NCBI GenBank assembly: GCA_037444725.1 | Contig: JBBILW010000002.1 | Span: 1 to 53,118, forward strand | Direction of reading: 5' to 3' | Origin: Candidatus Jorgensenbacteria bacterium | GTDB taxonomy: Bacteria; Patescibacteriota; Minisyncoccia; UBA6257; GWB1-50-10 | Length of the DNA: 53,118 bases | Shown: piece by piece, positions 3,449 to 52,073 of the stretch | Layout: the number at the start of each line of letters is the position of its first letter | How positions within the stretch are numbered: position 1 is the first letter of the stretch | Notes under the pieces: model-generated | What the model saw: the letters and a program-made list of their open reading frames with translations, nothing else | Told to the model about the DNA's origin: nothing | Databases searched by the model: none | Program-made: the position numbers and the translations under genes

Positions 3449-3455
3449 ACCTTCA

Positions 3456-4103
3456 TTATACCTTTAATTTTGAAACAGGACACTCGGCATGGTCATGTTT
3501 TTTCGCCGGACAATATTCCCTGCCGTACAAAATAATGCGGAGCGACAAGTTGCGCCACTCTTCGTGCGGAATAATTTCCATAAGGTCGCGCTCGATTTTT
3601 TCTGGGTCATGATTATCAGTGAGTCCCCAGAGACGCGCGAGGCGCCGGACGTGCGTATCTACCGCGATACCCTCCACGATGCCGTACGCGCTCTCCAATA
3701 TGATATTCGCGGTCTTCCGCCCTACGCCGGGAATCGTGATAAGCTCTTCCATCGTACGGGGAACTTTTCCGTGAAATTCGGTTGCAACTTGTCGCGCAGC
3801 TGCAAGGATACTCTTCGCTTTATTGCGATAAAATCCCGTGGACTTTATATCTTGCTCAAAGACTGACTGCGTCGCGTGCACATAATCATCGAGTGTCCGG
3901 TATTTTTTGAAGAGCGTCGCGGTCACCTCATTTACCTGTCTGTCGGTGCATTGCGCAGAGAGCACAACAGCAACCAAAAGCTCCCACGGATTCTTGTGGT
4001 TAAGCGATACGCGGATTGTAGGGTAAAGTTTCGTGAGCAGCGCGATAATCGCCGCCGCTTTCTTCTTTCGCGCTGCAAGAGTCATTGCGTTGCTCTTACT
4101 CAT
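3456..4103 (-). CDS. nth: Endonuclease III family DNA glycosylase/lyase (HhH-GPD)
   Basis: Contains the HhH motif with catalytic Lys (IPGVGRKTANIIL) and the catalytic Asp (IAVDTHVRRL). The start is trimmed to ATG at 4101-4103 (MSKSNAM...). The C-terminal loop has only 2 Cys. Confidence 0.8.
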   Translation of the reverse strand: MSKSNAMTLAARKKKAAAIIALLTKLYPTIRVSLNHKNPWELLVAVVLSAQCTDRQVNEVTATLFKKYRTLDDYVHATQSVFEQDIKSTGFYRNKAKSILAAARQVATEFHGKVPRTMEELITIPGVGRKTANIILESAYGIVEGIAVDTHVRRLARLWGLTDNHDPEKIERDLMEIIPHEEWRNLSLRIILYGREYCPAKKHDHAECPVSKLKV

Positions 4104-4207
4104 GGATGACGACTCAATTAGTGAAATCCGAATGCGACGTAACCAAGGTACGCGACAATAAGACCCACAATGATAAAAATCCAAAATTCGAGATGCTCCA
4201 TACTGAC

Positions 4208-4555
4208 TTATTCACTGTATTTCGTTTTTCTTCCCGATTGCGATGTCGTTTTCTCCTTATATTTACGGAGCTCGAGCTTCAATAGGTCTTTAACATCATC
4301 AATTGCCGCACGCGCATCGGAGTTTTCCGTTTCAACCCTGATGGTTTTCCCGGGAAGACCGAGCGTTACTTCCGCATAATACACGTCGCCGTGCGTGTGG
4401 TGGCGCGAGGTGCGCGCCAGTTCGCAAAATGCGGTTATCTCATCTTTTTCCTCGAATCGGGAAACAATGTCGGCGCACGAGCCAATTTTTTCTTCGATGT
4501 ATTCTTTGATTGCGGGAGTAAGTTCAAGCTTGCTGCCCATGATATTGATTTTCAT
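4208..4555 (-). CDS. hpf: Ribosome hibernation promoting factor (S30AE/RaiA family)
   Basis: MKINIMGSKLELTPAIKEYIEEKI is a typical HPF N-terminus. An alternative ATG lies at 4573 (MKYTIYMKIN). Confidence 0.75.
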   Translation of the reverse strand: MKINIMGSKLELTPAIKEYIEEKIGSCADIVSRFEEKDEITAFCELARTSRHHTHGDVYYAEVTLGLPGKTIRVETENSDARAAIDDVKDLLKLELRKYKEKTTSQSGRKTKYSE

Positions 4556-4577
4556 ATATATAGTATACTTCATAAAA

Positions 4578-4599
4578 ACACGGGCGTAATTGCCCGTGT
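4578..4599 (-). terminator. Rho-independent terminator after the Cys-rich protein gene
   Basis: Hairpin ACACGGGC-gtaatt-GCCCGTGT. On the minus strand it is followed by TTTTTAT. Confidence 0.7.
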
Positions 4600-4610
4600 T
4601 TTTGTTTTCA

Positions 4611-6425
4611 TCAGAACTGAGGAGGCGTGGGGATTGAGCCCGGCATCATGCCTGGCACGCCGCCAGGAACCGCGGTCGGAATGTTCTGCATCATGCACTT
4701 GCGTACCGTATCGCTAAAGCTCGAAGGAGGCTGCGCCTCACCGCTCTTTATCTTGTCGAGCAAGTCCTCCCCGTATGCGGACTTAAGACAACTCTCCGTT
4801 TGCGGCGCGAACTGCGGCATTGCGGGGATACCGGGCACCAAAGTCCTTTGCGGGATCGGAGGAACGGGGGCAATACCTGGACCCTCCGTCATAGGAGGCA
4901 CTACGGGTTTGTATTGCACTGCACACCCTTGGATAACCTCCTGGAGATTGTCCGGGGGCTGCTGCAAATTCGAGATATCGCCGATTTTTGCCCTCACGCA
5001 CTCCTGGATTGCGGGCGGCATCTGCGGCATACGTGTTTGTATTTCTCCTGCTGCATTTTTTACGCATTCCTGCATCGCTTCGCCAACTGCTGGCGTTGCC
5101 GCTGCTCCCTGACCCGCCTTCAGTTGCGCAACCGTATCAGTGCCAAGCTTATCAATAAGGCACTGCTCGGCTCCGGGAGGCAAATTCGCAAACGCACCCT
5201 GTATGCGTGCGGCACCCTGTTGCGCCATGCTCTCAAAACAGGCACGGAGCGCATCTCCTTTCTCTGGCGAAGGCGCCTCTCCTGCGCGAATCTTCTGAAG
5301 ATCAATAGTGCCTACATTTTGCTCAATGCAATTCATAACTGCGGGCGGCGCCATCTTGAGCCCCTGTTCAAGTTTATCTTTCACCTTGCCCATCTGGCTC
5401 TCAAAACACGCCTTCACGGTTTCGCCAACCTGCTGCGTCGGCGTGAGTTCACCGCTCTGCATCTTGCCGATGACATTCTCTCCAAGCTTCTCCCGCAAAC
5501 ACGCCTTCACTTCTTCTGGTGCCTGAGCGATACCGGTCCGCAAAAAGCCCATACCGTCCTTAATTTCCTTTATTTTTTCGGGAGGAATAATTCCGTGGTC
5601 CTGCGCGAACGCAAAGCACTCATCGGCATGCTCGGATGCGTTGCAATACGCATCACACGCATCTTTTGAAGAACATCCGCCGGGACCCTTACCGCCCGTC
5701 TTCTTCGCAATAGCGAGGTCTTCGGGAGAAATGAGGCCTGCTTTTTCCGCAAACGCGATGCATTCATTGAAATGGTCGGCTGCCTTGCAGTAATTCTCGC
5801 ACGTATCTTTCGAAGTGCACTTCCCCGGTGTTTCGCCGTTTTTGACAAACGCGGTCATCTTCCTCGCATTGGCGAGCTCTTCCGGCGAAAGCGTTCCCGC
5901 CTTTTCCGCGAATGCTAAGCACTCATCTGCGTGCTGGCCTCCGCTGCAATACGCTTCGCACTGATCTTTTGTCTTGCATCCTCCAGGCATAGTCGCTCCC
6001 GCCTGCAACGCCGCCTGTATCCGCTTCATCTCGCCAAGCTCCGCACCGCTTGCAATGCCGTGCGTCTCGGCAAAGGCTGTGCACGCCTGTAAATGTGATA
6101 CGTCCGCGCAATACGTTCTGCATGATTTTTCGTCCTTGCATCCGCCAGGGCCCTCGCCGCGCAATACATCCGCGAACTTGCGTGAACGCGCCGCAACATC
6201 CGGTGAAATAAGGTTATGCGCTTCGCCGAAATTGGTACATTCGGTAATGTGCGCAGTATCGGCACAGTACGCCCGACACGCTGCCTGATCGGTGCAACTG
6301 CCAAGTTCAGCAATCGGATATGTTATTTCAGGAGTCTGCGCTCGTACCACGATAACCGCGCTCGCGAATATACCGGATGCGAGAATCATTGCGGGAAGGA
6401 ATGATGATGCGATAATTTTTTTCAT
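4611..6425 (-). CDS. Secreted or anchored Cys-rich tandem-repeat protein, function unknown
   Basis: Has an N-terminal signal/anchor (MKKIIASSFLPAMILASGIFASAVIVV). Five copies of G-x-C-x6-C-x3-C-x4-H-x3-C-x2-FAE are followed by about five copies of a P-x-x-x-x-x-C-(L/I)-x-x-K-(L/I)-G ... C unit and a Pro-rich tail. Confidence 0.7.
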   Translation of the reverse strand: MKKIIASSFLPAMILASGIFASAVIVVRAQTPEITYPIAELGSCTDQAACRAYCADTAHITECTNFGEAHNLISPDVAARSRKFADVLRGEGPGGCKDEKSCRTYCADVSHLQACTAFAETHGIASGAELGEMKRIQAALQAGATMPGGCKTKDQCEAYCSGGQHADECLAFAEKAGTLSPEELANARKMTAFVKNGETPGKCTSKDTCENYCKAADHFNECIAFAEKAGLISPEDLAIAKKTGGKGPGGCSSKDACDAYCNASEHADECFAFAQDHGIIPPEKIKEIKDGMGFLRTGIAQAPEEVKACLREKLGENVIGKMQSGELTPTQQVGETVKACFESQMGKVKDKLEQGLKMAPPAVMNCIEQNVGTIDLQKIRAGEAPSPEKGDALRACFESMAQQGAARIQGAFANLPPGAEQCLIDKLGTDTVAQLKAGQGAAATPAVGEAMQECVKNAAGEIQTRMPQMPPAIQECVRAKIGDISNLQQPPDNLQEVIQGCAVQYKPVVPPMTEGPGIAPVPPIPQRTLVPGIPAMPQFAPQTESCLKSAYGEDLLDKIKSGEAQPPSSFSDTVRKCMMQNIPTAVPGGVPGMMPGSIPTPPQF

Positions 6426-6444: not shown

Positions 6445-6711
6445 TTATTGGCCGAACGGATTCTGATATCCGGTATCGTACGGATTTGTCTGCGTCTTGA
6501 AAGGATTCGTTTCAGGAACGTTCGCCGCCGGGTTCGGCGTCGCCTGGCTGTAAATCTGTCCGCCAAGCCCTGCGTCCTGAGGGTTCGTCACTTTTTCTTG
6601 CACGCCTCCCGTTGCAGGACTCGGTGCGACGACCGGCTGCGCAAGATACCACCATACACCCGCCGCGACAACCAACACTCCGACTATCGCGTAGATTAGT
6701 GTTTTACTCAT
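6445..6711 (-). CDS. Small N-terminally anchored protein with a low-complexity NP-rich tail
   Basis: One TM helix (LIYAIVGVLVVAAGVWWYL), then a P/N/Q/G-rich tail with NPF/NPY motifs. It lies 19 nt upstream of the Cys-rich gene. Confidence 0.5.
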   Translation of the reverse strand: MSKTLIYAIVGVLVVAAGVWWYLAQPVVAPSPATGGVQEKVTNPQDAGLGGQIYSQATPNPAANVPETNPFKTQTNPYDTGYQNPFGQ

Positions 6712-8207: not shown

Positions 8208-10043
8208 TTATTTCGTTCCTTTCGCGTCGCGCTCCGCCTTCTTGCGGTCGCTCTCCTTCAAATAGATTTTTCTAATGCGGATATTCTTCGGAGTTACTTC
8301 GACAAGTTCGTCGTCGCCGATATAATCGAGCGCATCCTCAAGTCCCATCTCGCGCGGCACATCAAGCGTCTCCTGAATACCGAAGTTCTTCGTGCGGAAG
8401 TTCGTGAGCTCTTTCGTGCGGCAGATGTTCACTAAGATGTCGTCCGCCTTTGCGTTCTGGCCTATCACCATACCCTCATACACCTCAACCGCAGGACCGA
8501 TGAACAAGGGTCCGCGTCCCTGCGCAGTGATAAGCCCGTAGCTGTTTGAGGCGCCCGACTCGGAGCTGATAAGCGAGCCGTGCGGTTCCGCCGGCAAATC
8601 GCCTTTATACGCCTCGTAGCCGAGGAACAAGCTGTTCATAATACCCTTTCCCTTCGTACTCGTGAGGAATGCATTGCGGATACCGATAAGTCCGCGCGTC
8701 GGAACAGTGAAGTCCATATGCGTGGTTCCGCGGTCAACGCGCATGTCTTTCATGGCGCCGAGTCTGCGACCCATCATCTCAATGATGGTTCCGCCGAACT
8801 CCTCGGGAACTTCGAATGAAACGAGCTCAACGGGCTCCGTTTTCTTGCCGTCCTGCTCGCGGAAAATAACTTGCGGCTTTGAAACCTCAAGTTCGTATCC
8901 TTCGCGGCGCATCTTCTCGATAATAATCGAGAGGTGAAGCTCTCCGCGGCCCGCGACCGTCCATTTGTCGGGAGAATCGGTTGCAGTCACTGAAAGCGCC
9001 ACATCGGTCTCAAGCTCATGCTCAAGCCTCTCGCGCAAATTGCGTGACGTCGAATACTGGCCTTCTTTGCCGGTAAACGGCGAGGTATTTACGCCGAACA
9101 CCATCTTGATGGTCGGTTCGTCGATAGTAATAGGAGGAAGCGGCATCGGATTCTCAATGTCGGTAATCGTCTCGCCGATAGAAACATCGTCAATGCCCGC
9201 GATGCCGACGATGTCGCCAGCAGAGAGTGACTCAACATCAACGCGCTTCATGCCCTCAAAGCCGAGCACAGCGGAAATCTGCACCTTCTTCGACTCGCCC
9301 TTGCGATTCACGTGAAGCACCTGCGCGCCTTTTTTAAGCGTACCCGCGTAGAGGCGTCCCACCGCAATCTTTCCTTTATAGTTATCGTAAAAAAGACTGA
9401 CCGTGAGCATCTGGAGCGGATTCGTTTCTGAAATCTTCGGACCCGGAATATATTTCACGATTGCATCAAAAAGCGGAATGACATCAGTCATCGTCGAAAG
9501 ATCAGCAGTAAGTCCCGCCTTTCCCTGCGCGCCCGCGGCGTAAATCACGGGGAAATTCGACTGCTCATCCGAAGCGCCAAGTTCAATAAACAAATCAAAC
9601 GTCTGGTCGAGCGCCCACATAGGCCGTGCGTCCGGCTTGTCGATTTTGTTAACCACCACGATTACCTTGTGTCCTGCCTGAATTGCCTTGCGCAATACGA
9701 ATTTCGTCTGCGGCATCGGGCCTTCTTTCGCGTCCACGAGAAGTAAGACGCCGTCCACCATGCGCATAATGCGTTCCACCTCACCGCCGAAATCAGCGTG
9801 CCCCGGAGTATCAACGATGTTAATCTTCAATCCCTTATAGTTGATGGAAGCGTTTTTCGAGAAAATAGTAATACCGCGCTCGCGTTCGAGCTCGTTCGAA
9901 TCCATCATGAGGTCTTTCTCCGCGTCCGCCTTCACATGGAAGTTCTCGGACTGTTTCAAGAGTGCGTCAACCAACGTCGTCTTTCCGTGGTCGACGTGTG
10001 CGATGATTGCGATATTTCTGATGTCGTTTCGTGTCGTTTCCAT
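8208..10043 (-). CDS. typA: Translational GTPase TypA/BipA
   Basis: [22 protein letters not shown] (G1), [12 protein letters not shown] (G3), NKIDK (G4), and EF-G-like domains. Trimmed to ATG at 10041-10043 ([14 protein letters not shown]). Confidence 0.9.
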
Positions 10044-10127: not shown

Positions 10128-10880
10128 TTATGCCTTTATGCCTTCAAGGTAGAGAAAGATGGGAATTTCCTTACGAATCTTGTTCTCCGCCGCTGCACGT
10201 GGTCCAGGCTCGCTCGATTTATGCGAAATCCATTCCTCAAGACTCCGCACGAGCAAGTTCGCTTTGCGCAAAAATTTAAAATAGACCTGGAGCGGCCGAT
10301 GAAATGAAAGTGTCACCTCGTCAGGTTTGTCTCCAGGATGCATCTGAATTTTCACCGATGCTTCGGACATATAACCGTCGATGCGGCGATACTGCGCTTT
10401 TAGTTCCTCGTCCCAGCCCCAGCTCGAACGCTTCGGCACGCGGAACGCGGGGTGATTCATCACGATATGAACGCTTCCTTTCGGCTTTAACACGCGCGTA
10501 ACTTCCTGAAATGCTTTTTGCGCGTCCTCAATGTTTTGTATGGCAAGCACAATCGCCACCTTATCCACGCTCGCGTCTTTTATGAAATCCAATTTCGTTG
10601 CAGGAGAAACGTGATACTCAATATTTGCGGACTTTCCTTTTTGCGCAATCGCAATCAAATCTTTCGCAACATCAACGCCGATAATCTGCGCGCCAGTTTC
10701 CGCAAACGCGCGTGAAAAGAAACCCGAACCGCACGCAAGATCCAAAATCACCTCGCCTTTTTTCGGTGCAAGTGCGCGCATCAAATTCGGAAGTACTACC
10801 TCTTTTTGATAGCTCCCCTCCCTTTCAACAAGTTCGCCGTACCACTCGGCAACATTCCCCCACGATGTTTTTTTAGGCAT
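10128..10880 (-). CDS. Class I SAM-dependent methyltransferase
   Basis: SAM-binding motif I VILDLACGSGFF. The ATG at 10878-10880 overlaps the upstream stop as TAATG. Confidence 0.7.
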   Translation of the reverse strand: MPKKTSWGNVAEWYGELVEREGSYQKEVVLPNLMRALAPKKGEVILDLACGSGFFSRAFAETGAQIIGVDVAKDLIAIAQKGKSANIEYHVSPATKLDFIKDASVDKVAIVLAIQNIEDAQKAFQEVTRVLKPKGSVHIVMNHPAFRVPKRSSWGWDEELKAQYRRIDGYMSEASVKIQMHPGDKPDEVTLSFHRPLQVYFKFLRKANLLVRSLEEWISHKSSEPGPRAAAENKIRKEIPIFLYLEGIKA

Positions 10881-11356
10881 TAGATATTGTTTACATCTGC
10901 GCACGTATAGTTATCCATTCTCATGAATATTTTTGCAAGAGCTTCAAAACCCTCAAAAAACTTGATTGGGCTTTTGTCATCCTTTCTCTCTTTTTCAATA
11001 TAGCTGCGTATATCCATATTGCAATACGCTTTTTCAAAATCATAACTAAACATGTCATACGCCATTCTCTTTTCGATTAGGCCGCTTTGATAAAGATTGC
11101 CAACGGTTTCAAGCTCACTCAATATATAATCAATTTTTTTCTCACCAAATTGCGAAACCGGCGTGCTGCTAGCCTTTTCAATAACATCGAAAATCGCATC
11201 GTATTTATCTGCATAAACCCTTTGATCCAATTGCAAAACAAATTCACCAGAATGAACTCGGTAATCCATATACAGCGTATAAATTGTCAGAAAAATACCA
11301 GCAATGGCTGCAATTAGTCCGATTATTTTTCCAGCTTTTTCTATTTTGTCCACCAC
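10880..11356 (-). CDS. N-terminally anchored hypothetical protein (AT-rich orphan)
   Basis: GTG start and a TM helix (IIGLIAAIAGIFLTIYTLY). GC is visibly lower than in the neighbours. It is translationally coupled to the downstream methyltransferase. Confidence 0.45.
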   Translation of the reverse strand: MVDKIEKAGKIIGLIAAIAGIFLTIYTLYMDYRVHSGEFVLQLDQRVYADKYDAIFDVIEKASSTPVSQFGEKKIDYILSELETVGNLYQSGLIEKRMAYDMFSYDFEKAYCNMDIRSYIEKERKDDKSPIKFFEGFEALAKIFMRMDNYTCADVNNI

Positions 11357-11402
11357 TAAAATATGCCCCTATTTCTCTTTCCTTTCAACACCAAAGGCGA
11401 CT

Positions 11403-11573
11403 CCTTTTCTCGTGAGTGTTCTGAAGTGAGCATTTCCATTTCCGAGCGAAGAAAATAAAGCGGGCAATTGCGTGCTGTATGAGCTTCCCAAAGGGGGCGA
11501 GTTCACGCAATGCCGTCGATTTATTTGATGAGCGAGGCACATGGAAGCGAATGCAAGTACTCACGAGAAAAGG
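11403..11573. repeat. Perfect 15-bp inverted repeat (11403-11417 / 11559-11573) bracketing about 140 bp of noncoding sequence
   Basis: CCTTTTCTCGTGAGT versus ACTCACGAGAAAAGG. An inner imperfect stem pairs CGGGCAATTGCGTG (11461-11474) with CACGCAATGCCG (11504-11515). Confidence 0.6.
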
Positions 11574-11662
11574 AATTGCCTTCCCACCGACCCTTCTTGC
11601 GTCAAAACAGAACGGAGAGTAGCATTGCGGCAGTACCCCATCGAACAAAAGGAGGACGAACC

Positions 11663-11947
11663 GTGTACGCAAGCGATTTGGATCCGAAGGGCATGGCCTT
11701 GCGCCGCGCCGTGCTCGATCGCAAGAAGAAGCTGCGTGAGGAAATCGAAAACGTTCCGCTCGGCGCCTTCCACGTGGGGGACCTCGAGCCGCTCCTTCGG
11801 CTCATGGGTCTTGCCGGCCCCGACAAGGATTGCCAGGAATCGGACATGACGCAGCTCGAGGAACGCGTCCGCGAGTACCGGGCATGGAGCGAAAAGGAAT
11901 TCTATCGGCACCTGCGCGACCTGCCATTCGGATTCGTAAAGAAGTAA
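11663..11947 (+). CDS. Small GC-rich hypothetical protein
   Basis: GGAGG (11651-11655) lies 7 nt before a GTG start, and a terminator follows immediately. Strong G/C third-position bias. Overlapping ORFs in other frames look like GC artefacts. Confidence 0.5.
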   Translation: MYASDLDPKGMALRRAVLDRKKKLREEIENVPLGAFHVGDLEPLLRLMGLAGPDKDCQESDMTQLEERVREYRAWSEKEFYRHLRDLPFGFVKK

Positions 11948-11953
11948 AGACTC

Positions 11954-11980
11954 GCCCCCGCATTCCGCGGGGCTTTTTTT
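11954..11980 (+). terminator. Rho-independent terminator
   Basis: GCCCC(C)GC / GCGGGGC stem followed by TTTTTTT. Confidence 0.75.
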
Positions 11981-12002
11981 CGCGATGCAAGAGAAAAATG
12001 CA

Positions 12003-14984
12003 CTACTGCATCATCTCGCGAAGCGCACAAAACTCACAATCTTTTTCATGACACCCCTTATCCCAAAATGAAAGCGAAAGAATTTCTTCCACGGTTTTCT
12101 TAATAATCACTTCAAGTTCCGTGACTTCCTCATCGGTTATCGTAAACGCTTCCTTCTTGTATCTGCCCTTCTCATCGGGCTCAACAAAATCAACATCCGC
12201 AGAAACCATTTCATAATGAATGCCCTTCTCCAAGCGGCTCAAAAGCAAACGATAAAACACGAGCTGGCGCTTGATATCGCCGTTTGAGCTCGCAGTCGTC
12301 CCCTCAATTTCTCCGCGCGTCTTCGGCTTGCCTGTTTTGTAGTCAACGACATTTACCTCATTCTTGTCATTTAAAATTTCGAGCTTATCAAGCTTACCCG
12401 AAAGTTTTATGTCGGGGGTAAGAAGTACGCCTTTCACATCGAATTCGGTAACTACATTCGTTTTCCACTTCGCGTGATATGCATCCCAGTATCCTCCTAA
12501 TGCCCTCTCGCCGCGTTCCAGCCATTCCGCGCGAATCGTAGTTGAAAACGGCTGCTTGCCCGCATGAAATCTGAATTGTTCCAATAATAACTCACGTGTA
12601 GCGCGCCCCTCGCGGACCGCCTCAAACAAGTCTTCGAGTGCCGCGTGAACCGCAGTGCCGTAAAGCTGGTGCGGCTCTTTTGCTGCCGGAATGCGGAGCA
12701 AATTCTGATAGAAATAGCGCCATGGACAATTGAGATAATTATTGAGCGCGGTTGCAGAAAGTCCTCGCTCCAAAAATAATTCCTGAACGAACTCTTTGTC
12801 GCGGATGCTCACAGGGCTCGCCTTCGTGGGCGTAAACATAATTCCTTTTTGCGAGGCAAATTCATCTTCAATCTTCGATGCATCTCCTGTTATAAGAAGC
12901 GCGAGATCTATCTCGCCGATAAACTGGCTCGGCAACTGTTCTTTTCCCGAGATGCTCTCTTTCGCATATGAAATAGTGAGCGTCTTTTTTGCGCGCGTAA
13001 GTGCCACATAAAAAAGGCGGCGTTCGTCGTCTAATGGGTCATGAAGCAAGCGCGATTCATGTGTGAGCGAATATACCGCGGGTGGCAAAGGCAGCGCGCT
13101 CGCCTTTTTCGCATTCCCCCAGTGCCCGTCATACGAGCCAACGATAAACACGTGCCCGAATTCCTGTCCCTTTGATTTATGCGCCGTCATAAGCCGCACG
13201 CGCTTCGTGAGTCCGCCAAACGAACTTTTTTTCACAAGCAAATCATGAAGCTCGATTGTCGAGAGATACTCAAGAAAATCATGGAGGTTCGCATCAATAT
13301 GCGCTTCCCCAAATTTTTGCGCCTCATCGAAGAAGCCGTTCAGCTTCTCCATTTTTTCAACCATGTCAGGCAACGACATCACATGAGACAAAAAGCCGGA
13401 TTCGTTTACAATTGAGCCTATAAACGCCTGCAACTCCTTGTTCTTCCCGTGGCTCGCCCAACGGACCATATCGCCATACCACGTGCGGAGCTTCGCGGGA
13501 CTTTCGAGTTTCATGGCTCGCAACTCGGCATCCGATTTTAATACGTCGTAAATAGAAACATGCTTCGTGCCTGCTTCGCGTATCACGCGGTACACATCAA
13601 GCGGATGAAGCTGCAAGAAATCTGCGTGCATAGCCTCCGCTGCGCGTACATCAGAGCCGAACTCATCGATAGCGCGCAATAACGTAATAAGTTTTCTGAT
13701 ATCACGGTCGCGCATCACGTTTTCATCGGACTCGATTATGAAGGGAACTCCCGCGCGCTCTAACATCGGCACGAGCTGGCCCGCATCACGGTTATTACGG
13801 TAGAGAACCGCAATATCCTCAGGCTTTGCGCCGCCTTGAATAAGCCTCATTATCTCCTGCGCAACAAAGTACTGTTCAATCTCGGGCCGTGAAAATGAAA
13901 AGAGTTGCGCGCGCACATCCTCGTGCCCCGCACGCGCCTCGAGCGCTTTTTTGCCGGGAAGCAAACTATGCGCTGCATCGAGAATCGATTGCGTTGAGCG
14001 ATAGTTTTCGGAAAGCACAATAAGCTTCGCGTCTTTGTATAAATTCTTAAAATAGAGGAAATTCTCGAGCGAAGCGCCCTGGAATCTGAATATCGCCTGC
14101 TTCTCATCGCCCACCACGAAAATATTCGGATTCGCATGGAAATTCGAAAGCAACTCAAGAATTCTGTTTTGTGCGTTATTGGTATCCTGATGCTCGTCCA
14201 CCAAAATGTACTGGTACTGCTCCTGCAAAATAAGAAGAAGGTCTTTGTTCGTCTGAAGTTCGCGCAAGACCTCCATAATCATATCGCTGTAGTCGTAGCG
14301 CTTCCGCGTGCGAAGTTCCGCTTCGTACGCCTCGTAGAGAGTTGAGAGTTCGCGATTCTTTTCGATGGATTTCAGCTCCTTCTTATAGTCGCCCTTCATC
14401 TCGCCCTTGTGCGCGCCCTTTTCATGGTAGAGATCGGGCGTCTCGTCAAATCGCTTCTGCTCCTCGGCGACAAGGCTCACGAATTGCGCAGGGTCCAAAC
14501 CTTCGCGCTTTAAATCATTAATCGCCTTCACAATATCGCGTACGTAGTAAAGCGGGTCGCCAAGAGGCTTTAACACTGCGAGTTTCATTTTATGTACCAA
14601 TTCCTCAACAATCGCAATCTCATCGATTTCGGTAATGCTCTCCGCGCCGATAATGCGCGGGAATTCTTCCGGATACTCCTTTATGATGCGGTTGCAGAAA
14701 CCGTGGAACGTGCTTATAGAAACCGCGTATGCGGGGGCGCCGATGACTTCCGTAAGTCTGCGGCGCATATTGGTCGCGCCCGCTTCGGTAAACGTAAGGG
14801 CTAAAATATTCTCCGGATTCGTATCAACGATGCGGAGAATATTCGCAATGCGAAGCGTAAGAATCTCGGTCTTCCCGGTGCCGGGACCCGCGACTACCAT
14901 GACGGGCCCCTCGACAGCGTCAACCGCTTCGCGTTGCGCGGCATTCAGCTTTTTATAACGCAAATCAAAAGCGGCGGTATCCAT
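12003..14984 (-). CDS. UvrD/PcrA-type superfamily 1 helicase fused to a C-terminal RecB/Cas4-like PD-(D/E)XK nuclease
   Basis: Walker A AGPGTGKTE and the helicase motifs ILVDEHQDTN and TAHKSKGQEF. Nuclease motifs GKLDKLE and VVDYKTGKPK, with Cys residues at NCPWRYF and CHEKDCEFC. Trimmed to ATG at 14982-14984. Confidence 0.85.
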   Translation of the reverse strand: MDTAAFDLRYKKLNAAQREAVDAVEGPVMVVAGPGTGKTEILTLRIANILRIVDTNPENILALTFTEAGATNMRRRLTEVIGAPAYAVSISTFHGFCNRIIKEYPEEFPRIIGAESITEIDEIAIVEELVHKMKLAVLKPLGDPLYYVRDIVKAINDLKREGLDPAQFVSLVAEEQKRFDETPDLYHEKGAHKGEMKGDYKKELKSIEKNRELSTLYEAYEAELRTRKRYDYSDMIMEVLRELQTNKDLLLILQEQYQYILVDEHQDTNNAQNRILELLSNFHANPNIFVVGDEKQAIFRFQGASLENFLYFKNLYKDAKLIVLSENYRSTQSILDAAHSLLPGKKALEARAGHEDVRAQLFSFSRPEIEQYFVAQEIMRLIQGGAKPEDIAVLYRNNRDAGQLVPMLERAGVPFIIESDENVMRDRDIRKLITLLRAIDEFGSDVRAAEAMHADFLQLHPLDVYRVIREAGTKHVSIYDVLKSDAELRAMKLESPAKLRTWYGDMVRWASHGKNKELQAFIGSIVNESGFLSHVMSLPDMVEKMEKLNGFFDEAQKFGEAHIDANLHDFLEYLSTIELHDLLVKKSSFGGLTKRVRLMTAHKSKGQEFGHVFIVGSYDGHWGNAKKASALPLPPAVYSLTHESRLLHDPLDDERRLFYVALTRAKKTLTISYAKESISGKEQLPSQFIGEIDLALLITGDASKIEDEFASQKGIMFTPTKASPVSIRDKEFVQELFLERGLSATALNNYLNCPWRYFYQNLLRIPAAKEPHQLYGTAVHAALEDLFEAVREGRATRELLLEQFRFHAGKQPFSTTIRAEWLERGERALGGYWDAYHAKWKTNVVTEFDVKGVLLTPDIKLSGKLDKLEILNDKNEVNVVDYKTGKPKTRGEIEGTTASSNGDIKRQLVFYRLLLSRLEKGIHYEMVSADVDFVEPDEKGRYKKEAFTITDEEVTELEVIIKKTVEEILSLSFWDKGCHEKDCEFCALREMMQ

Positions 14985-46188: not shown

Positions 46189-46581
46189 TTATTTGAGGAT
46201 AAAATCAACCAGCACGCCCCACAATAACGCAATAATAGACGTGGCAAAAATAACGTAGTAATTCCACTTTTCTTTCGAGGAAAGCAGCGTGCCAAAAATG
46301 TACTGCATTGCCGATTTCTCCTCATCGTTGAACTCGGTGCTTCCCGCAATCCGTTCGGTAAGCTTATATTCCGCGACAAGTTTCGCACGGCGCGCGGCAA
46401 CCGAGTATCGGTGCGCAAAATAAAGAATAAATCCGACGGTGCCGACATACCACGCACCCTTCAAAAGACCCTGGTTCAAATTTGCGAGCACAATTATTGC
46501 GCGATAGAGAATCGTAGCAATGATGCCAATCCAAAAGAAAAACGAGCGTACCCACGGCGCATTTGGCTTAAATTCTTTCAT
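46189..46581 (-). CDS. Membrane protein of unknown function
   Basis: Three hydrophobic helices. It abuts the MFS gene start. Confidence 0.45.
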   Translation of the reverse strand: MKEFKPNAPWVRSFFFWIGIIATILYRAIIVLANLNQGLLKGAWYVGTVGFILYFAHRYSVAARRAKLVAEYKLTERIAGSTEFNDEEKSAMQYIFGTLLSSKEKWNYYVIFATSIIALLWGVLVDFILK

Positions 46582-46619
46582 ATAGTTATCGTAACAGATT
46601 AATTATCAGGTGCGCGATT

Positions 46620-47141
46620 TTAAGCTTCCAGATTCAATCCAGCATTATTTAAAACTAATGCAATCTGCGTTCTAAATTTCCCCTGCTGGCCCGTGGAGGG
46701 AAACGGAATCTCCACGCCATTATTGATTACATTAAAACCGTTTGACTTGAGCGGGTCCGCAAGAAGTCGACAAATATTTACCTTTACTAAAATAATCGGG
46801 GTCTTTTTGTCAGGCGTTAGGGTTTCTAAATCCTCCAAAAGTGTAGGTAATGAATTCTTAATAACCTTATCGCGTTTCCAACTCACGTATTGATCTACAG
46901 GAATATAAGTCGCGTCAACGATAATAAGTCCCCTTCTAACAAACTCCGCCAAACCTGATGCTTTATCAGCAGACTCATAGCCAATCAATTCCATCATGGC
47001 CACAAAAAGCGGTTCGGTGGCTTTTCCCTCCGCGTCGTAGAAATACTTTCCAGACTCTGGTGGTGACTCAAAAACAAAAATTGCCTTTATATTTTCGGGC
47101 TGATATTTATTTCGTTTGTTGATGTATTTGTTACGCGACAT
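46620..47141 (-). CDS. Divergent uracil-DNA-glycosylase-superfamily-like protein
   Basis: The order of elements mirrors the UDG fold: IFVFESPPESG (motif A position), LIIVDATY, PIILVKVNI, and IPFPSTG (motif B / HPS position). Its ATG overlaps the upstream stop as TAATG. Confidence 0.4.
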   Translation of the reverse strand: MSRNKYINKRNKYQPENIKAIFVFESPPESGKYFYDAEGKATEPLFVAMMELIGYESADKASGLAEFVRRGLIIVDATYIPVDQYVSWKRDKVIKNSLPTLLEDLETLTPDKKTPIILVKVNICRLLADPLKSNGFNVINNGVEIPFPSTGQQGKFRTQIALVLNNAGLNLEA

Positions 47142-48310
47142 TACCGATTTCCTTTTGCTCGATTATGCGTCTTGCAAAGCATCTGACAATTCTTGGCTGA
47201 CGTAGATCCGCCCTTACTCCAGGCCGCAACATGATCAGCGTCCATTTCTGCAATGCTCCAAATCCTCTCCTTGTTCACGTCATGGCCGACAGCGCAGAGA
47301 GGACAATTTGATTCCTTTTTTTTCTTCGCTTTGGCGGTTTGTGATTCGTAAGTAGATCGCTTGATCGCCTCATCAAAAACTCGAACCTCTAGTAATTTTG
47401 TATCGGTTAAGCCACCAAGAATATACTCAAAAATGCCTTTGCGATTTTTGATATACGGATCACTATAGAGCTTATTCACTTCGGCGGATATCTTAGTCGG
47501 GTTATACGCCTTTTTGTGATACACCTCATAAAGTCGCCCCCACTCAAGTCCGCGCATTTCGCTTTCAACATCGACAAATACACCAGACACCCAATCGATG
47601 ACGGTGTTGAAATATTTTTTCAACTCATCAATATTTCTATCTTTGCGATGCTTGCTCATGTAGTCACCAATATTACCCCTACTTACCCAGTCAAGAGCAC
47701 ATTCCAAAAATTCCTGTCGATTTGCGCTACCCGATACATACGCACTCCATTTTTGAATGTTGGCGTTTTGACTATTACTAAATTCTTCCTTAGCTCTAGT
47801 TACGAATGGACCAGAATATACAGCATTGAGTAATTCCTGATTATTGAGCGGAACACCGGCGATATTTATGGTCTTAAACCACTCTTTTATTTGACTTTCT
47901 GTTCCTTCGCATTCATAGATAAGTAATTTTGTTTTCAAAATCTTATCCTTCTTATCTTTCGCCATACCGCCAAAATATTGCTCCATCCCGTTTTCGTCTT
48001 TAATGGCAAATTTATCAGTAATAAATCTTCCAAGACTGGTGATACGCTGTTGCCCATCTAAAACTTCTAGATTGTCGGTAGAAACTTTATTGAAATAGAT
48101 CAATCCTATCGGATATCCCTTAAGAACTGATTCGATAACGGCCATTTCTCTTTTCCCCCCGTCAGATGCATAAATATAGTTTCGTTGATACTCCGGCTGA
48201 ATAGTGAGTTTACCAGCCAAACCAAACAAGCCCTTACCCTCAAGTTCGTTATAGACGAACCCCTCGCAAATATCTTTAACGGTGATATCAGTGCTTAATT
48301 TTGTTTTCAT
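47141..48310 (-). CDS. DUF262 (ParB-like NTPase/nuclease) fused to a C-terminal HNH endonuclease
   Basis: DUF262 motifs IQPEYQR and [12 protein letters not shown], plus [14 protein letters not shown] region CPLC...[12 protein letters not shown]...[15 protein letters not shown]. Confidence 0.8.
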
Positions 48311-48319
48311 GTTATTTAT

Positions 48320-48925
48320 TTATATGACGATATCAGGAAGGTCCCTAAGTTTTTTACCCTTATATTTGAAATAGTCCGCACCCGCGTAGGCGCCACTCGC
48401 ATTCAACTCACCTCGCTGCTCATAGAGCCTATATGTAAGCGGCGCCAATTTCCAAACCTGACCCCCGTATTCTACCTCCCGTTCGCCGACAATCTTTGCA
48501 GTTATTGCTTCGTCGTCTTTAAAAACGATTTCGTCTCCGTTTTTCAGCCCCTTTTTATAGAAGCTAAACAACCTACTTCGTTCTCTGACCCTAGAAACCG
48601 CATCGAACTCTCTTTCTTGGTCTATGTTTTCAGGATAAATAATCTTTCCCTTAAACGAGAGTAAAAGCTGACGTATTAGCTCTTGGTCGAGAGCGAAGAG
48701 TTCGCTTTCGCCTACCCTGTGTTTGTTAAAAATATCATGCAGCAAAATCTCTTTTTCAACGTAGTCCTCAAGTTCAATCGCAAAAAATCTTTTCAAACCA
48801 GCAACATTATAATAGCCGTTTGCCTCGAGGTTTCGCATCCGTTCGGAATAATTGCCGGTGCCGGTTTGCCCAATTTTTACTAGGCCGGAGACAGCCGTTG
48901 TCATTATGTAAATAATCCCTTTCAT
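48320..48925 (-). CDS. T5orf172 / GIY-YIG-superfamily domain protein with an unassigned C-terminal half
   Basis: GIIYIM (GIY position), LVKIGQT (YIG position), ERMRNL (Arg), and ESELF (Glu). Residues from about 100 to 201 are unassigned. Confidence 0.6.
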   Translation of the reverse strand: MKGIIYIMTTAVSGLVKIGQTGTGNYSERMRNLEANGYYNVAGLKRFFAIELEDYVEKEILLHDIFNKHRVGESELFALDQELIRQLLLSFKGKIIYPENIDQEREFDAVSRVRERSRLFSFYKKGLKNGDEIVFKDDEAITAKIVGEREVEYGGQVWKLAPLTYRLYEQRGELNASGAYAGADYFKYKGKKLRDLPDIVI

Positions 48926-48926
48926 A

Positions 48927-50135
48927 TTATTTATTCTTGCGTCGTATAAGCACTCTTTGATAAACCTTCTCCATCAGGCCATTCTGAACAACCACGCCAC
49001 TCGCGTTCAGATCGTAGGTTCCTTTTTTGCTAAATTTATCTAAATAGGCTTGCTTACATTCAATGGAAGAATATTTCTTTGTTTTTAATTTATAAAGATC
49101 TTCATTTTCACACATCCCCAATATCTCAAACTGGTCGGGGTTATATTTGTCTAAAAAACTGATTGGCACACCCATCACGCCGCCATAATCACTAGGGATA
49201 GCATCGGTAAATGACACCTCTATGGCGTCATAATTATCATATTTATCATACGCGTTTTTTCCTTTAATTTCTTTGTGCTTGCTATATTTTAGATTCTCCT
49301 CCATCGTCATAAGTGGTAACGGTTGGTGACGTCGTCCATGGTCTACGTTGGTGAACCAAAGTGCGGTGTGTATTCCGATTAGCGGTTTGCCATCAATAAT
49401 TCTCCACCACATCCCTTGCGGCTTACTCGCCATAACCTTTTCGGTATATTCTTTCGGCGCTTCTAAAAACATTTGTTGGCTACTTGTCTTATTCCCAAGC
49501 CATAATTTATTACTTTTAATTAGAGGGAAAACCTCTTTGTAAGTAATCGCGTTCATGTTGCCGATAATAACGAATTTTTTATTGTAATCAAAAAGCTGCT
49601 TAACATACTCGCGGAACAAGCTGAACGGTGGGTTAGTAACAACGACGTCGGACTGCTTCAGCAAATCCACGCATTCTTCACTGCGAAAATCTCCGTCGCC
49701 TTCGAGCGGCATCCATTCGTTGTGTTTGTTTGCTTTTAATTGCTTCGCAACGTCCTTCAAGTTGAACTCGCCATCGCCGTCCATATCGCCCACATCACTC
49801 ACAATAAACTTGTTTGCGGTTACTTTCGGGCGGCCTTTTGATTTCGTAAGGGTTTTATCATCGCCAAATAATCCTAGTTGTGTGTTGGCCACAGGCGAGG
49901 GTTTATAACTTGTGGTAATAAGCTTTTTTAACCCGAGCTTATTGAAATTGAGTACAAAATATCGGAAGAAATTGCTCTCAAATGGGTCGTCGCAGTTGCA
50001 ATATATCACCCTACCTCGAAATACGTCGGGGTTATATTCTAAATAAGCCCCGATCTCTTTCTGAATATCGTTATACTGAGTATAAAACTCATCGTTCTTT
50101 TCCCTTTTTGCGTTTGTGAGATGGCTGTTTGCCAT
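48927..50135 (-). CDS. N6-adenine DNA methyltransferase (EcoRI-methylase-like family)
   Basis: Motif IV VVTNPPFS, the N-terminal KNDEFYTQ and YCNCDDPF blocks, and NFFRYFVLNF. Confidence 0.75.
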   Translation of the reverse strand: MANSHLTNAKREKNDEFYTQYNDIQKEIGAYLEYNPDVFRGRVIYCNCDDPFESNFFRYFVLNFNKLGLKKLITTSYKPSPVANTQLGLFGDDKTLTKSKGRPKVTANKFIVSDVGDMDGDGEFNLKDVAKQLKANKHNEWMPLEGDGDFRSEECVDLLKQSDVVVTNPPFSLFREYVKQLFDYNKKFVIIGNMNAITYKEVFPLIKSNKLWLGNKTSSQQMFLEAPKEYTEKVMASKPQGMWWRIIDGKPLIGIHTALWFTNVDHGRRHQPLPLMTMEENLKYSKHKEIKGKNAYDKYDNYDAIEVSFTDAIPSDYGGVMGVPISFLDKYNPDQFEILGMCENEDLYKLKTKKYSSIECKQAYLDKFSKKGTYDLNASGVVVQNGLMEKVYQRVLIRRKNK

Positions 50136-50140
50136 AATTT

Positions 50141-50506
50141 TTATTTCTTAAATATACCCACAACACTATCAACAACATATTTAAGTGGCGCCATTGCAGC
50201 TATCAGGCGATTTTTTGTTAATAAGTTGCTCCGCCATGGATAACCGCGGCCACATTTATGGCAATTTAGAGGAACGGCTGGACCACTGCCACCAATAACC
50301 CCCGAAACGTGATAATAGCCTTTTATTCTAGAATTACAGTGCTCACATTTAAAAACTGTTGGACTTCCGCATTTCTCGCAAAAATCCTGCCCATGATTTG
50401 GGTAGGAATCAAGGAAGTCTGTAATTTTATGACCCCATTTTTTACAAACTTGCATCGTGTCGTAATAACTACTCATAAATATTTTCTCATTATTTATCTC
50501 GCTCAT
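50141..50506 (-). CDS. Multi-CxxC zinc-ribbon protein (DUF2321-like)
   Basis: CEKCGSPTVFKCEHCNSRIKG and NCHKCGRGYPW. This is the first gene of the island operon. Confidence 0.5.
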   Translation of the reverse strand: MSEINNEKIFMSSYYDTMQVCKKWGHKITDFLDSYPNHGQDFCEKCGSPTVFKCEHCNSRIKGYYHVSGVIGGSGPAVPLNCHKCGRGYPWRSNLLTKNRLIAAMAPLKYVVDSVVGIFKK

Positions 50507-50604
50507 CTTCTCAAAAAGGTGTTCATGTCAGACTCCTTAATCCATCGGCACAACTTCGAACACCATTAATCTTTGTCTGCCCACTCGATGAACTATCTGG
50601 ATCC

Positions 50605-50633
50605 ATCTTACCGCCTCCGCATTTCATGGTCAA
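50605..50633 (-). promoter_or_regulatory. Candidate sigma70-type promoter of the island operon
   Basis: On the minus strand, TTGACC (complement of 50628-50633), a 17-nt spacer, then TAAGAT (complement of 50605-50610). Confidence 0.45.
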
Positions 50634-50645
50634 AAGAATAAAAAA

Positions 50646-50658
50646 CGGCACATTGCCG
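50646..50658. terminator. Hairpin terminator between tRNA-Lys and the island promoter
   Basis: AAAAA-CGGCA-cat-TGCCG-TTTTT. Confidence 0.6.
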
Positions 50659-50675
50659 TTTTTGATTTATTTTTG

Positions 50676-50747
50676 TGCCCCCACGAGGATTTGAACCTCG
50701 AACCAACTGCTTAAAAGGCAGCTGCTCTACCATTGAGCTATAGGGGC
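50676..50747 (-). tRNA. tRNA-Lys (anticodon UUU)
   Basis: Folded by hand. Acceptor GCCCCTA/TGGGGGC, D arm GCTC-AATGGTA-GAGC, anticodon arm GCTGC-CTTTTAA-GCAGT, T arm CGAGG-TTCAAAT-CCTCG, discriminator A. No CCA is encoded. Confidence 0.9.
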
Positions 50748-50784
50748 ATAGCTGACTGGTCTACTATACCATTTATCATTGGAC

Positions 50785-51341: not shown

Positions 51342-51413
51342 TCCTCGGTAGCTCAATGGTAGAGCGGCGCCCTGTTAAGGCGATGGTTGTAGGTTCGAGT
51401 CCTACCCGAGGAG
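51342..51413 (+). tRNA. tRNA-Asn (anticodon GUU)
   Basis: Folded by hand. Acceptor TCCTCGG/CCGAGGA, D arm GCTC-AATGGTA-GAGC, anticodon loop CTGTTAA, T arm GTAGG-TTCGAGT-CCTAC, discriminator G. No CCA is encoded. Confidence 0.9.
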
Positions 51414-51429
51414 CTGAGTAAGAGAATAA

Positions 51430-51466: not shown

Positions 51467-51504
51467 CCTCGGGCAAGCTTGCTTACCCGAGGAGCAAGTG
51501 AGAG
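51467..51504 (+). repeat. tRNA-Asn acceptor-stem minihelix repeat, copy B
   Basis: CCTCGGG-caagcttgctta-CCCGAGGAGCAAGTGAGAG. It shares TACCCGAGGAGC with the tRNA-Asn 3' end (51403-51414) and forms a perfect 7-bp stem. Confidence 0.8.
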
Positions 51505-51548: not shown

Positions 51549-51587
51549 CCTTCGGGCAAGTCCGCTTACCCGAGGAGCAAATGGGAG
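51549..51587 (+). repeat. tRNA-Asn acceptor-stem minihelix repeat, copy C
   Basis: CCTTCGGG-caagtccgctta-CCCGAGGAGCAAATGGGAG, about 85% identical to copy B. The TACCCGAGGAGC core is at 51567-51578. Confidence 0.8.
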
Positions 51588-51602: not shown

Positions 51603-52073
51603 ATGAGCAACGCTCTAAAACTCATCATCTCAATCGTAGTCTCCGAACTCGCGGGCATTATCGGCGCGTTCTTTACGACGCCCTCCATTGCCGGTTGGTA
51701 TGTAGGAATAGTAAAGTCGCCTCTCAACCCACCCGCATGGATTTTTGCTCCGGTCTGGACGACGCTGTTTGCTCTCATGGGAATCGCGGCATTTCTCGTT
51801 TGGAAAAAGGGCTTAGACCGCAGGGATGTAAAAATTGCGCTCGGCATCTTCCTCGGCCAGTTGGTCTTGAATACGCTTTGGTCAATCATCTTTTTCGGCC
51901 TGCATTCTCCGAAAGGTGCATTTATCGAAATTATTGTTCTTTGGCTCGCCATTCTTGCCACTATTATTGCCTTTAAGAAAATTTCTAAGCCAGCCGCATG
52001 GCTTTTAGCGCCTTACATTCTTTGGGTTAGTTTTGCCGCGTATCTCAATTACTCAGTTTGGATGTTGAACTAA
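51603..52073 (+). CDS. tspO: TspO/MBR family tryptophan-rich sensory protein
   Basis: WYVGIVKSPLNPPAWIFAPVWTTLFALMGIAAFLVW, five TM helices, and a C-terminal AAYLNYSVWMLN. Confidence 0.85.
   Translation: MSNALKLIISIVVSELAGIIGAFFTTPSIAGWYVGIVKSPLNPPAWIFAPVWTTLFALMGIAAFLVWKKGLDRRDVKIALGIFLGQLVLNTLWSIIFFGLHSPKGAFIEIIVLWLAILATIIAFKKISKPAAWLLAPYILWVSFAAYLNYSVWMLN

Follow-up and report, generated by a model that had tools for sequence, protein, structure and literature searches.

We analyzed a 53,118-nucleotide (nt) stretch of DNA from Candidatus Jorgensenbacteria bacterium (assembly GCA_037444725.1, contig JBBILW010000002.1, positions 1 to 53,118 of the forward strand), referred to here as the window. 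It contains an islet of five close-packed genes, g1 to g5, that starts just 3' of a tRNA-Lys(UUU) gene on the same strand and that includes a methyltransferase (M, g2) and a nuclease (R, g4) of the restriction-modification (R-M) kind. The five minus-strand open reading frames (ORFs) reported in a first-pass annotation, made from the sequence alone, were all found again, as were their junctions. For the pairs g1-g2, g2-g3 and g3-g4, the genes are separated by 5, 1 and 9 nt, respectively, whereas g4 and g5 overlap by 1 nt (TAATG). Statements on the function of all five genes were inferred from homology and context. The features of the islet and its upstream border are as follows.

50675-50747, minus strand: tRNA-Lys(UUU) gene found by ARAGORN (50676-50747 by Rfam, 76 bits)
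50641-50663, minus strand: terminator-like hairpin and T-run, with a 10-bp stem, 4 G-C pairs and a 3-nt loop
50605-50633, minus strand: sigma-70-like promoter candidate, TTGACC-17-TAAGAT, matching at 9 of 12 positions
50141-50506, minus strand: g1, DUF2321 ORF, 121 residues as listed
48927-50135, minus strand: g2, EcoRI-family N6-methyladenine (m6A) methyltransferase, 402 residues
48320-48925, minus strand: g3, T5orf172 protein, 201 residues
47141-48310, minus strand: g4, DUF262-HNH nuclease, 389 residues
46620-47141, minus strand: g5, protein with a uracil-DNA glycosylase (UDG) fold, 173 residues

The g2 product matched the Pfam family EcoRI_methylase (PF13651, E = 4e-124) and the PADLOC model MTase_II (E = 7e-102), both of which support its earlier assignment as an N6-adenine methyltransferase, and its catalytic motif IV, VVTNPPF, fits (N/D)PP(Y/F). 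For g4, the proposed fusion of DUF262 to HNH was supported by Pfam for both domains: GmrSD_N (DUF262) at residues 36-165 (E = 1e-20), a ParB/Srx-like domain with the motif DGQQR, and HNH (PF01844, E = 5e-6) with the canonical pattern CPLC...DADH...N...CKTHN. The best PADLOC model for g4 was REase_II (PDLC03418, E = 5e-83), which covered residues 8-388 of 389, whereas GmrSD-like models matched the N-terminal domain alone at 1e-5 or weaker. GmrSD_C (DUF1524) had no match in g4, the C-terminus of which fits the PF01844 HNH instead. In GmrSD-like proteins, the DGQQR motif has been linked to nucleotide hydrolysis; the operon contains no helicase or ATPase gene. Sequence searches of the PDB with g2, g3, g4 and g5 gave nothing significant, no characterized REBASE enzyme behind PDLC03418 was found, and a literature search found no paper on a pair of an EcoRI-family methylase and a DUF262-HNH nuclease.

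Homologs of g4 number at least 8000, and those at 79-92% identity occur in more than 80 species across phyla. We searched 80 species-level genome loci around g4 homologs with all five proteins, and added 6 loci of the closest g4 relatives (92% identity) for a total of 86. A g2 homolog (44-76% identity) was located upstream of the g4 homolog on the same strand in 73 of the 80 loci, in many phyla and usually at a spacing of 4 nt. In 6 of the 7 loci without a methylase match, the contig ended within approximately 3 kb. All 6 loci of the closest relatives were plain M-R pairs, with neighbors that included HTH_3, HTH_17 plus HEPN_AbiU2, HigB, an M78 peptidase, DUF4411 and serine recombinases; no conserved flanking gene around the pair was found. 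The pair was also present on plasmids of Moraxella, Arthrobacter, Rhodococcus and Gordonia, and g4 homologs were present on Enterococcus faecium plasmids. A further pair, with a nuclease 77% identical to g4, was seen in Flavobacterium phage vB_FspS_laban6-1 (record 10219-12581), a phage that may be lytic or temperate; there it forms a moron-like insert on the opposite strand, flanked by the tape-measure gene and by a block of small genes. The fixed order of M then R, the occurrence on plasmids and in a phage, and the lack of conserved flanks indicate that the core of the islet is a mobile two-gene, type II-like R-M cassette. From family membership and fixed pairing, we infer that g2 and g4 are a restriction-modification pair.

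This pairing did not extend to the other three genes. Among the 86 loci around g4 homologs, g1 and g5 were absent from all and g3 was present in 4; none of 85 loci around g5 homologs contained g1, g2 or g3, and g1 homologs were mostly in type I R-M operons. The five families were not found together beyond this genome, and these counts contradict the undescribed composite five-gene system that the first-pass annotation had proposed. That annotation also could not map the operon to classical R-M, yet g2 and g4 fit type II in both their profile matches and their pairing. Nor do g2, g3 and g4 lie outside named systems, since PADLOC assigned g2 and g4 to type II methyltransferase and restriction endonuclease models and g3 to the candidate PDC-S57. 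The lack of fit to BREX (bacteriophage exclusion), DISARM (defense island system associated with restriction-modification), Dnd/Ssp, or type I or type III R-M did hold, as there was no PADLOC match to PglZ, BrxC, DrmA, DndA-E, SspA-D, HsdS/HsdR or Res among the five proteins.

The content of guanine and cytosine (GC) was 0.37-0.43 (approximately 40%) across 46500-50750 compared to 0.47-0.58 (approximately 50%) on both sides, and GC at third codon positions (GC3) was 0.32-0.47 for g1 to g5 compared to 0.54-0.73 for flanking genes. The AT-richness of the operon relative to the backbone, first noted from a few hand counts, was borne out by both measures, and values for all five genes well below those of the flanks support recent acquisition. 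A widespread M-R pair joined by three unrelated accessory genes indicates a mosaic of independent defense parts and not a five-gene system. Taken together, these data lead us to conclude, at a probability of roughly 0.7, that the islet was horizontally acquired and is built on a type II-like R-M cassette with three independent passengers, g1, g3 and g5. The combination of g1 to g5 is unique to this locus, and the locus is of a known kind, namely a type II-like R-M pair that has accessory defense candidates within and beside it. All five genes are probably co-transcribed from the promoter just past the tRNA terminator. The g2 product would methylate adenine N6 at a target motif in host DNA, and g4, with a ParB-like and probably nucleotide-binding DUF262 domain, would use its HNH domain to cut incoming DNA that lacks the g2 mark. 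The five genes would cooperate as a layered defense only, not as one machine.

The passenger at the downstream end, g5, matched no profile in Pfam, NCBIfam, PHROGs or PADLOC (E <= 0.1) and, as noted, no PDB sequence. An AlphaFold model built from 57 homologs had a predicted local distance difference test (pLDDT) score of 96.1 and a predicted template modeling (pTM) score of 0.92. When this model was searched against the PDB with Foldseek, the top 33 matches were all UDG superfamily members (probability 0.96-1.00, template modeling [TM] score up to 0.59), including TDG, E. coli MUG (TM 0.56-0.58), SMUG1 and UdgX, and the BFVD viral structure library gave the same outcome. The UDG-like call, made at first from the order of motifs, is therefore supported at the level of fold. 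The two predicted active-site loops read E-S-P-P after strand 1 and F-P-S-T-G-Q-Q before the last helix, and residues E25, S26, P27, F147 and P148, the last followed by S149, are invariant in them. Of motifs A (G-x-x-P-x) and B (H/N-P-S), the P and the P-S are kept but the catalytic Asp, Asn or His is not, in agreement with the altered catalytic motifs noted in the first pass. A profile search returned 2084 representative clusters at E <= 1e-3 and 1075 at E <= 1e-10, and no match to g5 was found on plasmids. As modeled, g5 is a distinct UDG-like family, undescribed and without annotation.

UDG-fold anti-phage DNA glycosylases are established in the form of Brig1, Brig2 and Brig3 (PMC11078745; 10.1101/2025.10.29.685425; 10.64898/2026.02.25.707755). 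Like g5, these are single-gene members of the UDG-superfamily fold with highly divergent sequence, and they are AT-rich, horizontally acquired and next to defense genes. The sequence comparison was made with Brig1 only, the loops of which are GLNPG and YPWHS compared to ESPP and FPSTGQQ in g5. Alignment of the g5 family profile to Brig1 with hhalign gave a probability of 0.2% (E = 0.35), and g5 as a Brig1 homolog was rejected. By analogy, a role for g5 as a Brig-like defense glycosylase or base sensor is plausible. It would most likely flip out and excise, or sense, a modified base in phage DNA that has escaped restriction, as the Brig glycosylases do.

We consider it unlikely, though deserving of serious attention, that g5 is instead an ordinary repair glycosylase or an inactive UDG-fold protein resident in this lineage, beside which the R-M cassette merely inserted. 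The nearest g5 homologs (60-69% identity) have a 45-residue N-terminal extension that is not in the window copy, as truncation by cassette insertion would leave it. The closest homolog (69%; L001, 6714-8654) is 1 kb downstream of a TspO gene, the product of which is 78% identical to that of the window TspO gene (51603-52073); this linkage could be shared neighborhood ancestry or coincidence. Another homolog lies inside a methylmalonyl-CoA mutase/carboxyltransferase operon, and the neighbors in the 85 g5-homolog loci were neither conserved nor clearly enriched for defense genes, with a DUF262 gene in 1 of the 85. However, the GC3 of g5 (0.41) fits the islet and not the backbone (0.54-0.73), for which reason g5 as a gene of the genome backbone was rejected. 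The L005 homolog is itself an AT-rich insert (GC of 0.35 compared to 0.50 for its locus) with Panacea, GmrSD and HNH genes next to it. Motifs A and B have other residues at the canonical catalytic positions, and the family is patchy with no match to a housekeeping family of NCBIfam or Pfam. Fusions in the g5 family also join the domain to nucleases, namely Mrr_cat with a topoisomerase-type zinc ribbon and the g5 domain (P0285) and NERD with the g5 domain (P0313). We favor g5 as a passenger that would have landed downstream of g4 as a free-standing gene, and that is, as judged from the overlapping stop and start, translationally coupled to g4 here and independent elsewhere.

The second passenger, g3, occupies a position that is used by other genes in related loci. 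Between the M stop and the R start, 23 of the 73 M-R loci contained 0.6-3.1 kb of same-strand, close-packed genes. This cargo was RhuM in 8 loci, a g3-like T5orf172 gene in 4, Bro-N in 3, Fic/DOC in 2 and AAA_15/OLD-TOPRIM in 2. Among those found once were PIN_8, HEPN AbiU2, AntA, Schlafen (SLFN) AlbA_2 plus HATPase_c_4, DUF2130, a D12 methylase, and a C5 methylase with an HATPase_c_3 protein; several cargo genes had no Pfam match. In this cassette family, accessory defense genes have repeatedly docked in the slot between M and R. Genes nested on the same strand between R-M subunits, as g3 is, have parallels in PrrC and the Rlo genes of type I R-M and in the HEC and PDC candidates, and the cargo here (RhuM, Fic, AbiU2, OLD-like ATPases, Schlafen) is the repertoire typical of such systems. 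The carriers described by Payne et al. in 2024 are Hma, BREX, DISARM and type I R-M (10.1101/2024.01.29.577857), whereas the carrier here is a two-gene, type II-like cassette.

Over its N-terminal 90 residues, g3 exceeded the Pfam cut-offs for both T5orf172 (27.2 bits, cut-off 20) and MUG113 (27.6 bits, cut-off 22.3), and so the T5orf172/GIY-YIG-like call stands. It also matched the PDC-S57 models PDLC05040 (6e-52), PDLC05041 (2e-33, full length) and PDLC05043 (1e-19); a literature search on PDC-S57 found no paper. The conserved motifs are GIIY, KIGQT, R29 and E75. The C-terminal approximately 90 residues form a conserved domain of their own among homologs, and a profile of g3 homologs searched against the PDB matched no known fold for it. 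The N-terminal GIIY...KIGQT...R...E motifs are shared with T5orf172/GIY-YIG proteins such as the putative homing endonucleases and Odn (Gp88) of phage ICP1 (PMC8263062). In contrast to the phage ICP1 nucleases, g3 has its own C-terminal domain and is inside an R-M operon, not a phage genome (PMC8263062).

All four g3-like genes in the sample (L041, L042, L050 and L053; 4 of 86 loci) were in the same slot with the same TAA-T-ATG junction. The empty junction is TAA-T-ATG(R); with g3, it is TAA-T-ATG(g3), then 9-10 nt before ATG(R). In the window, g3 is bracketed by two copies of a 16-nt direct repeat that are identical at 15 of 16 positions.

48920-48935: left copy (AATAAATAAT-ATGAAA on the coding strand), at the M-stop/g3-start junction
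48305-48320: right copy, at the g3-stop/g4-start junction

Aligned with empty junctions, the junction with g3 was seen to have the M-stop/R-start sequence in duplicate. Presence and absence of g3 were interleaved among the loci; L053 and L061, for example, are 95% identical in M and 92% in R, and g3 is present only in L053. Cassettes so nearly identical that differ in g3 indicate that g3 was gained or lost within the cassette lineage. Two more distant relatives of g3 were seen outside R-M cassettes. In Phocaeicola massiliensis (L180, 4292-10082), a full-length homolog (28% identity, including the C-terminal domain) is found among a Schlafen/AlbA_2 protein, a UvrD helicase and a TIR-AAA protein in what resembles a defense island. 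In Neisseria gonorrhoeae (NZ_CP119140.1; L179, 6001-6337), a g3-like T5orf172 sequence with 43% identity over residues 3-108 is located between dnaK and a DUF2314-ankyrin gene, on a 2.17-Mb record labeled as a plasmid in PLSDB; it is split over two frames and is therefore probably a pseudogene.

These features raise the possibility, which we regard as doubtful, that g3 is a selfish, free-standing homing-endonuclease gene that invaded the M-R junction and is not a defense effector. T5orf172 belongs to the GIY-YIG superfamily and is found in the ICP1 proteins cited above, the best PHROG match of g3 is annotated as a homing endonuclease, and the insertion is precise, flanked by a duplicate of the junction and variable between near-identical cassettes. 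The highly conserved R gene next to it would also offer a stable target site. However, the same slot accommodates unrelated cargo that is not endonuclease (RhuM, Fic, Bro-N, OLD), so that the slot, and not g3, accounts for the location. The models of PDC-S57 that g3 matches derive from genes nested within BREX, DISARM or type I R-M systems (10.1101/2024.01.29.577857), and the distant homolog in P. massiliensis keeps company with TIR, UvrD and Schlafen genes. The divergence of g3 (75-77% identity) is also close to that of M and R, unlike recent homing. As a defense passenger, g3 would act most likely as a second-line nuclease effector.

The third passenger, g1, matched Pfam DUF2321 (PF10083) at E = 3e-25 (89.1 bits, cut-off 24) over model positions 1-86 of 157. 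It has three CxxC pairs forming a zinc ribbon, a conserved C-terminal helix and the tail motif P.KY.VD...F, with Cys and His residues that are invariant in the family. The family comprises 22 homologs; the other 21 range from 104 to 127 residues in length, mostly 111-113, and their alignment with g1 begins at its second Met. The start of g1 is therefore probably at 50476, which gives 111 residues; the multi-CxxC DUF2321 call of the first-pass annotation was upheld, but its length of 121 residues probably was not. In a context sample of 11 loci from 6 homolog clusters, all 11 were inside R-M operons. Nine were type I, in the order hsdM-(cargo)-DUF2321-hsdS-...-hsdR, and two (L087 and L088) had the order HTH-DUF2321-EcoRI-family M-DUF262/HNH, with a nuclease 38% identical to g4. 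The DUF2321 gene was always directly 5' of the specificity-determining gene, either hsdS or the type II methylase, and often overlapped it. In type I loci (L086, L089, L090, L173 and L175-L178), it was immediately 5' of hsdS, sometimes after Bro-N, GmrSD_N or DUF4145. From this placement, DUF2321 appears to be an R-M accessory, and the link to R-M operons is new. A literature search found nothing relevant on DUF2321, and the family is listed with zero occurrences in Payne et al. (10.1101/2024.01.29.577857). From its position alone, we would speculate that g1 most likely binds or regulates the DNA-recognition component.

The core pair itself differs from the usual type II system in how its two genes have diverged. 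Across 68 loci chosen by similarity to g4, a choice that inflates the identity of R, pairwise protein identity averaged 82% for the nuclease (minimum 74%) and 65% for the methylase (minimum 44%), and the two were correlated at 0.36. Synonymous sites were saturated, with a median proportion of synonymous differences (pS) of 0.76 for both R and M. Median nonsynonymous divergence (dN) was 0.11 for R and 0.25 for M, and the ratio of nonsynonymous to synonymous divergence (dN/dS) for R was at or below approximately 0.05. The same ranking was seen on a plasmid and in a phage (68-77% for R, 45-48% for M); the one exception was the distant L087 branch, with 38% for R and 49% for M. The GC content of the R gene followed that of the host locus (r = 0.67), which indicates that most copies are old residents and not recent transfers. 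In the methylase, hypervariable segments were found at approximately residues 221-260 and 341-380, and the second of these adjoins the cargo slot. At the C-terminus of g2 (window 48927-49100; L006, L047, L050, L053 and L061), the last 40-60 codons were seen to be swapped for unrelated sequence among loci, and the final approximately 10 codons and the stop/start junction stayed conserved despite the swap. On one reading of these patterns, specificity may reside in the methylase, with the nuclease as a generic effector.

Compared to type II R-M, the cassette is alike in that the methylase and nuclease genes are adjacent and in the same orientation, with neither a specificity subunit nor a helicase, that both proteins match type II models over their full length, and that the pair moves as a unit among genomes, plasmids and phage. 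It is unlike type II R-M in the ParB-like DUF262 domain of g4, otherwise known from type IV enzymes, in a nuclease more conserved than its methylase, and in the cargo between M and R at a third of the M-R loci. An N-terminal DUF262 domain with DGQQR followed by a C-terminal His-Me finger nuclease is shared with GmrSD, BrxU, SspE and HEC-06. However, the HEC-05 and HEC-06 models are approximately 560-620 residues long compared to 389 for g4, and type IV enzymes of the GmrSD family stand alone, whereas g4 has an adjacent methylase.

Several points weigh against the reading of the islet as a type II-like cassette with independent passengers. The characterized DUF262 nucleases GmrSD, BrxU and SspE are modification-dependent and not classical type II enzymes, and a nuclease that seems more constrained than its methylase is unusual for type II systems. 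The remaining locus without a methylase match (L035, a Saganbacteria metagenome-assembled genome [MAG] contig, 3405-5623) contains RhuM and then an intact g4 homolog (83% identity). No methylase was found in the 4.4 kb upstream, where a UbiD-like ORF and other housekeeping-type ORFs are located instead, and this is the single apparent orphan nuclease. The single-sequence structure model of g3 was unusable (pLDDT 40), leaving its C-terminal half without an assigned fold. The contexts of g5 homologs, including the metabolic operon, are not clearly those of defense genes, and the 1-nt overlap of g4 and g5 with their common low GC could mean that g5 arrived jointly with the cassette and cooperates with it.

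Alternatively, g4 could be a modification-dependent type IV nuclease similar to GmrSD or BrxU and not the partner of g2, the methylase being otherwise employed or guarding against a different enzyme. DUF262 with DGQQR is a hallmark of GmrSD, BrxU, SspE and HEC-06, R is kept without M in L035, and the conservation of R is independent of the divergence of M (r = 0.36). We nevertheless find this explanation highly improbable. In 73 of 80 loci, M directly precedes R, and contig ends cut 6 of the other 7. The full-length REase_II match and the canonical HNH in place of DUF1524 set g4 apart from the GmrSD-like models. In addition, an adjacent m6A methylase would be incompatible with a nuclease that attacks m6A DNA. 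Least credible of all, at very long odds, is the original idea of the five genes as one integrated, undescribed defense system acting together, for although the operon packing is tight, low GC is common to all five genes, every part acts on DNA, and in L087 and L088 g1 is found again alongside a distant M-R pair from these families, the co-occurrence counts above run against it and plain M-R pairs are the rule even in relatives 92% identical in g4.

The surroundings of the cassette with its passengers were also examined. The hairpin, which turned up as an inverted repeat in a repeat search as well, and the TTGACC-17-TAAGAT sequence had both been placed between tRNA-Lys and the operon by the first-pass annotation, and both are present; the promoter role of the latter, however, is plausible or suggestive at most, because such sites are no more common in the region (14) than expected from shuffled sequence (11.5). 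There was no integrase gene within the five-gene block. A duplicate of the 3' end of tRNA-Lys was not found in the window, either with up to 3 mismatches allowed or in the repeat search, and so no att duplication is visible. Among approximately 60 related M-R loci, about 10 had a tRNA gene up to approximately 1.6 kb upstream on the same strand, which indicates that a position near a tRNA is common for the M-R cassette. In an Armatimonadota MAG (L083), the M-R pair lies between two tRNA-Leu genes at 6562-6647 and 9186-9271.

Downstream of the g5 stop, a spacer of 38 nt (46582-46619) precedes the next minus-strand gene, which encodes a 130-residue membrane protein and is followed by a major facilitator superfamily transporter. 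A scan found no terminator-like site in the spacer, and transcription of the islet may run into the resident operon. Elsewhere in the window, the last 12 nt of a tRNA-Asn gene (TACCCGAGGAGC) are at 51403-51414, with two further copies downstream at 51484-51495 and 51567-51578. The copies are spaced 81-83 nt apart, each within a repeat of approximately 30 nt (CGGGCAAG..GCTTACCCGAGGAGCAA), with hairpins in between. On their arrangement, these repeated ends look like remnant attachment sites of serial integrations at tRNA-Asn.

Beyond the reading given above, the parts of the islet could be joined in a broader and bolder one. The DUF262-HNH nuclease would itself read no DNA sequence and would be a conserved, specificity-agnostic effector licensed or guided by a more variable methylase; the 3' end of the methylase and the M-R slot would be freely swapped; DUF2321 would be a dedicated accessory of the specificity-determining subunit in both type I and type II systems; and g5 would found a large new family for anti-phage base excision or base sensing. 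This reading is improbable in our estimation. Should any one of the swappable slot, the DUF2321 accessory and the UDG family prove true, it would amount to a new mechanism or family.

What was proposed as a five-gene system resolves into an R-M pair with passengers. What is new is a two-gene carrier with a cargo slot, a hyper-conserved DUF262-HNH nuclease, the association of DUF2321 with R-M operons, and a UDG-like family. The M-R slot adds a two-gene, type II-like carrier to those for which "guilt by embedding" has been published (type I R-M, BREX, DISARM and Hma), and slot cargo without a Pfam match is nominated as a source of defense candidates. The UDG-fold family of approximately 2000 clusters is a candidate for the growing class of defense glycosylases. 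The nuclease family is under purifying selection of a housekeeping level, with 74-94% identity across bacteria of the Candidate Phyla Radiation, Proteobacteria, Chloroflexota, Bacteroidota and an archaeal MAG. Restriction enzymes are usually seen as evolving fast. Such constraint contradicts that picture and hints that the nuclease and its methylase divide their labor in an unusual way.

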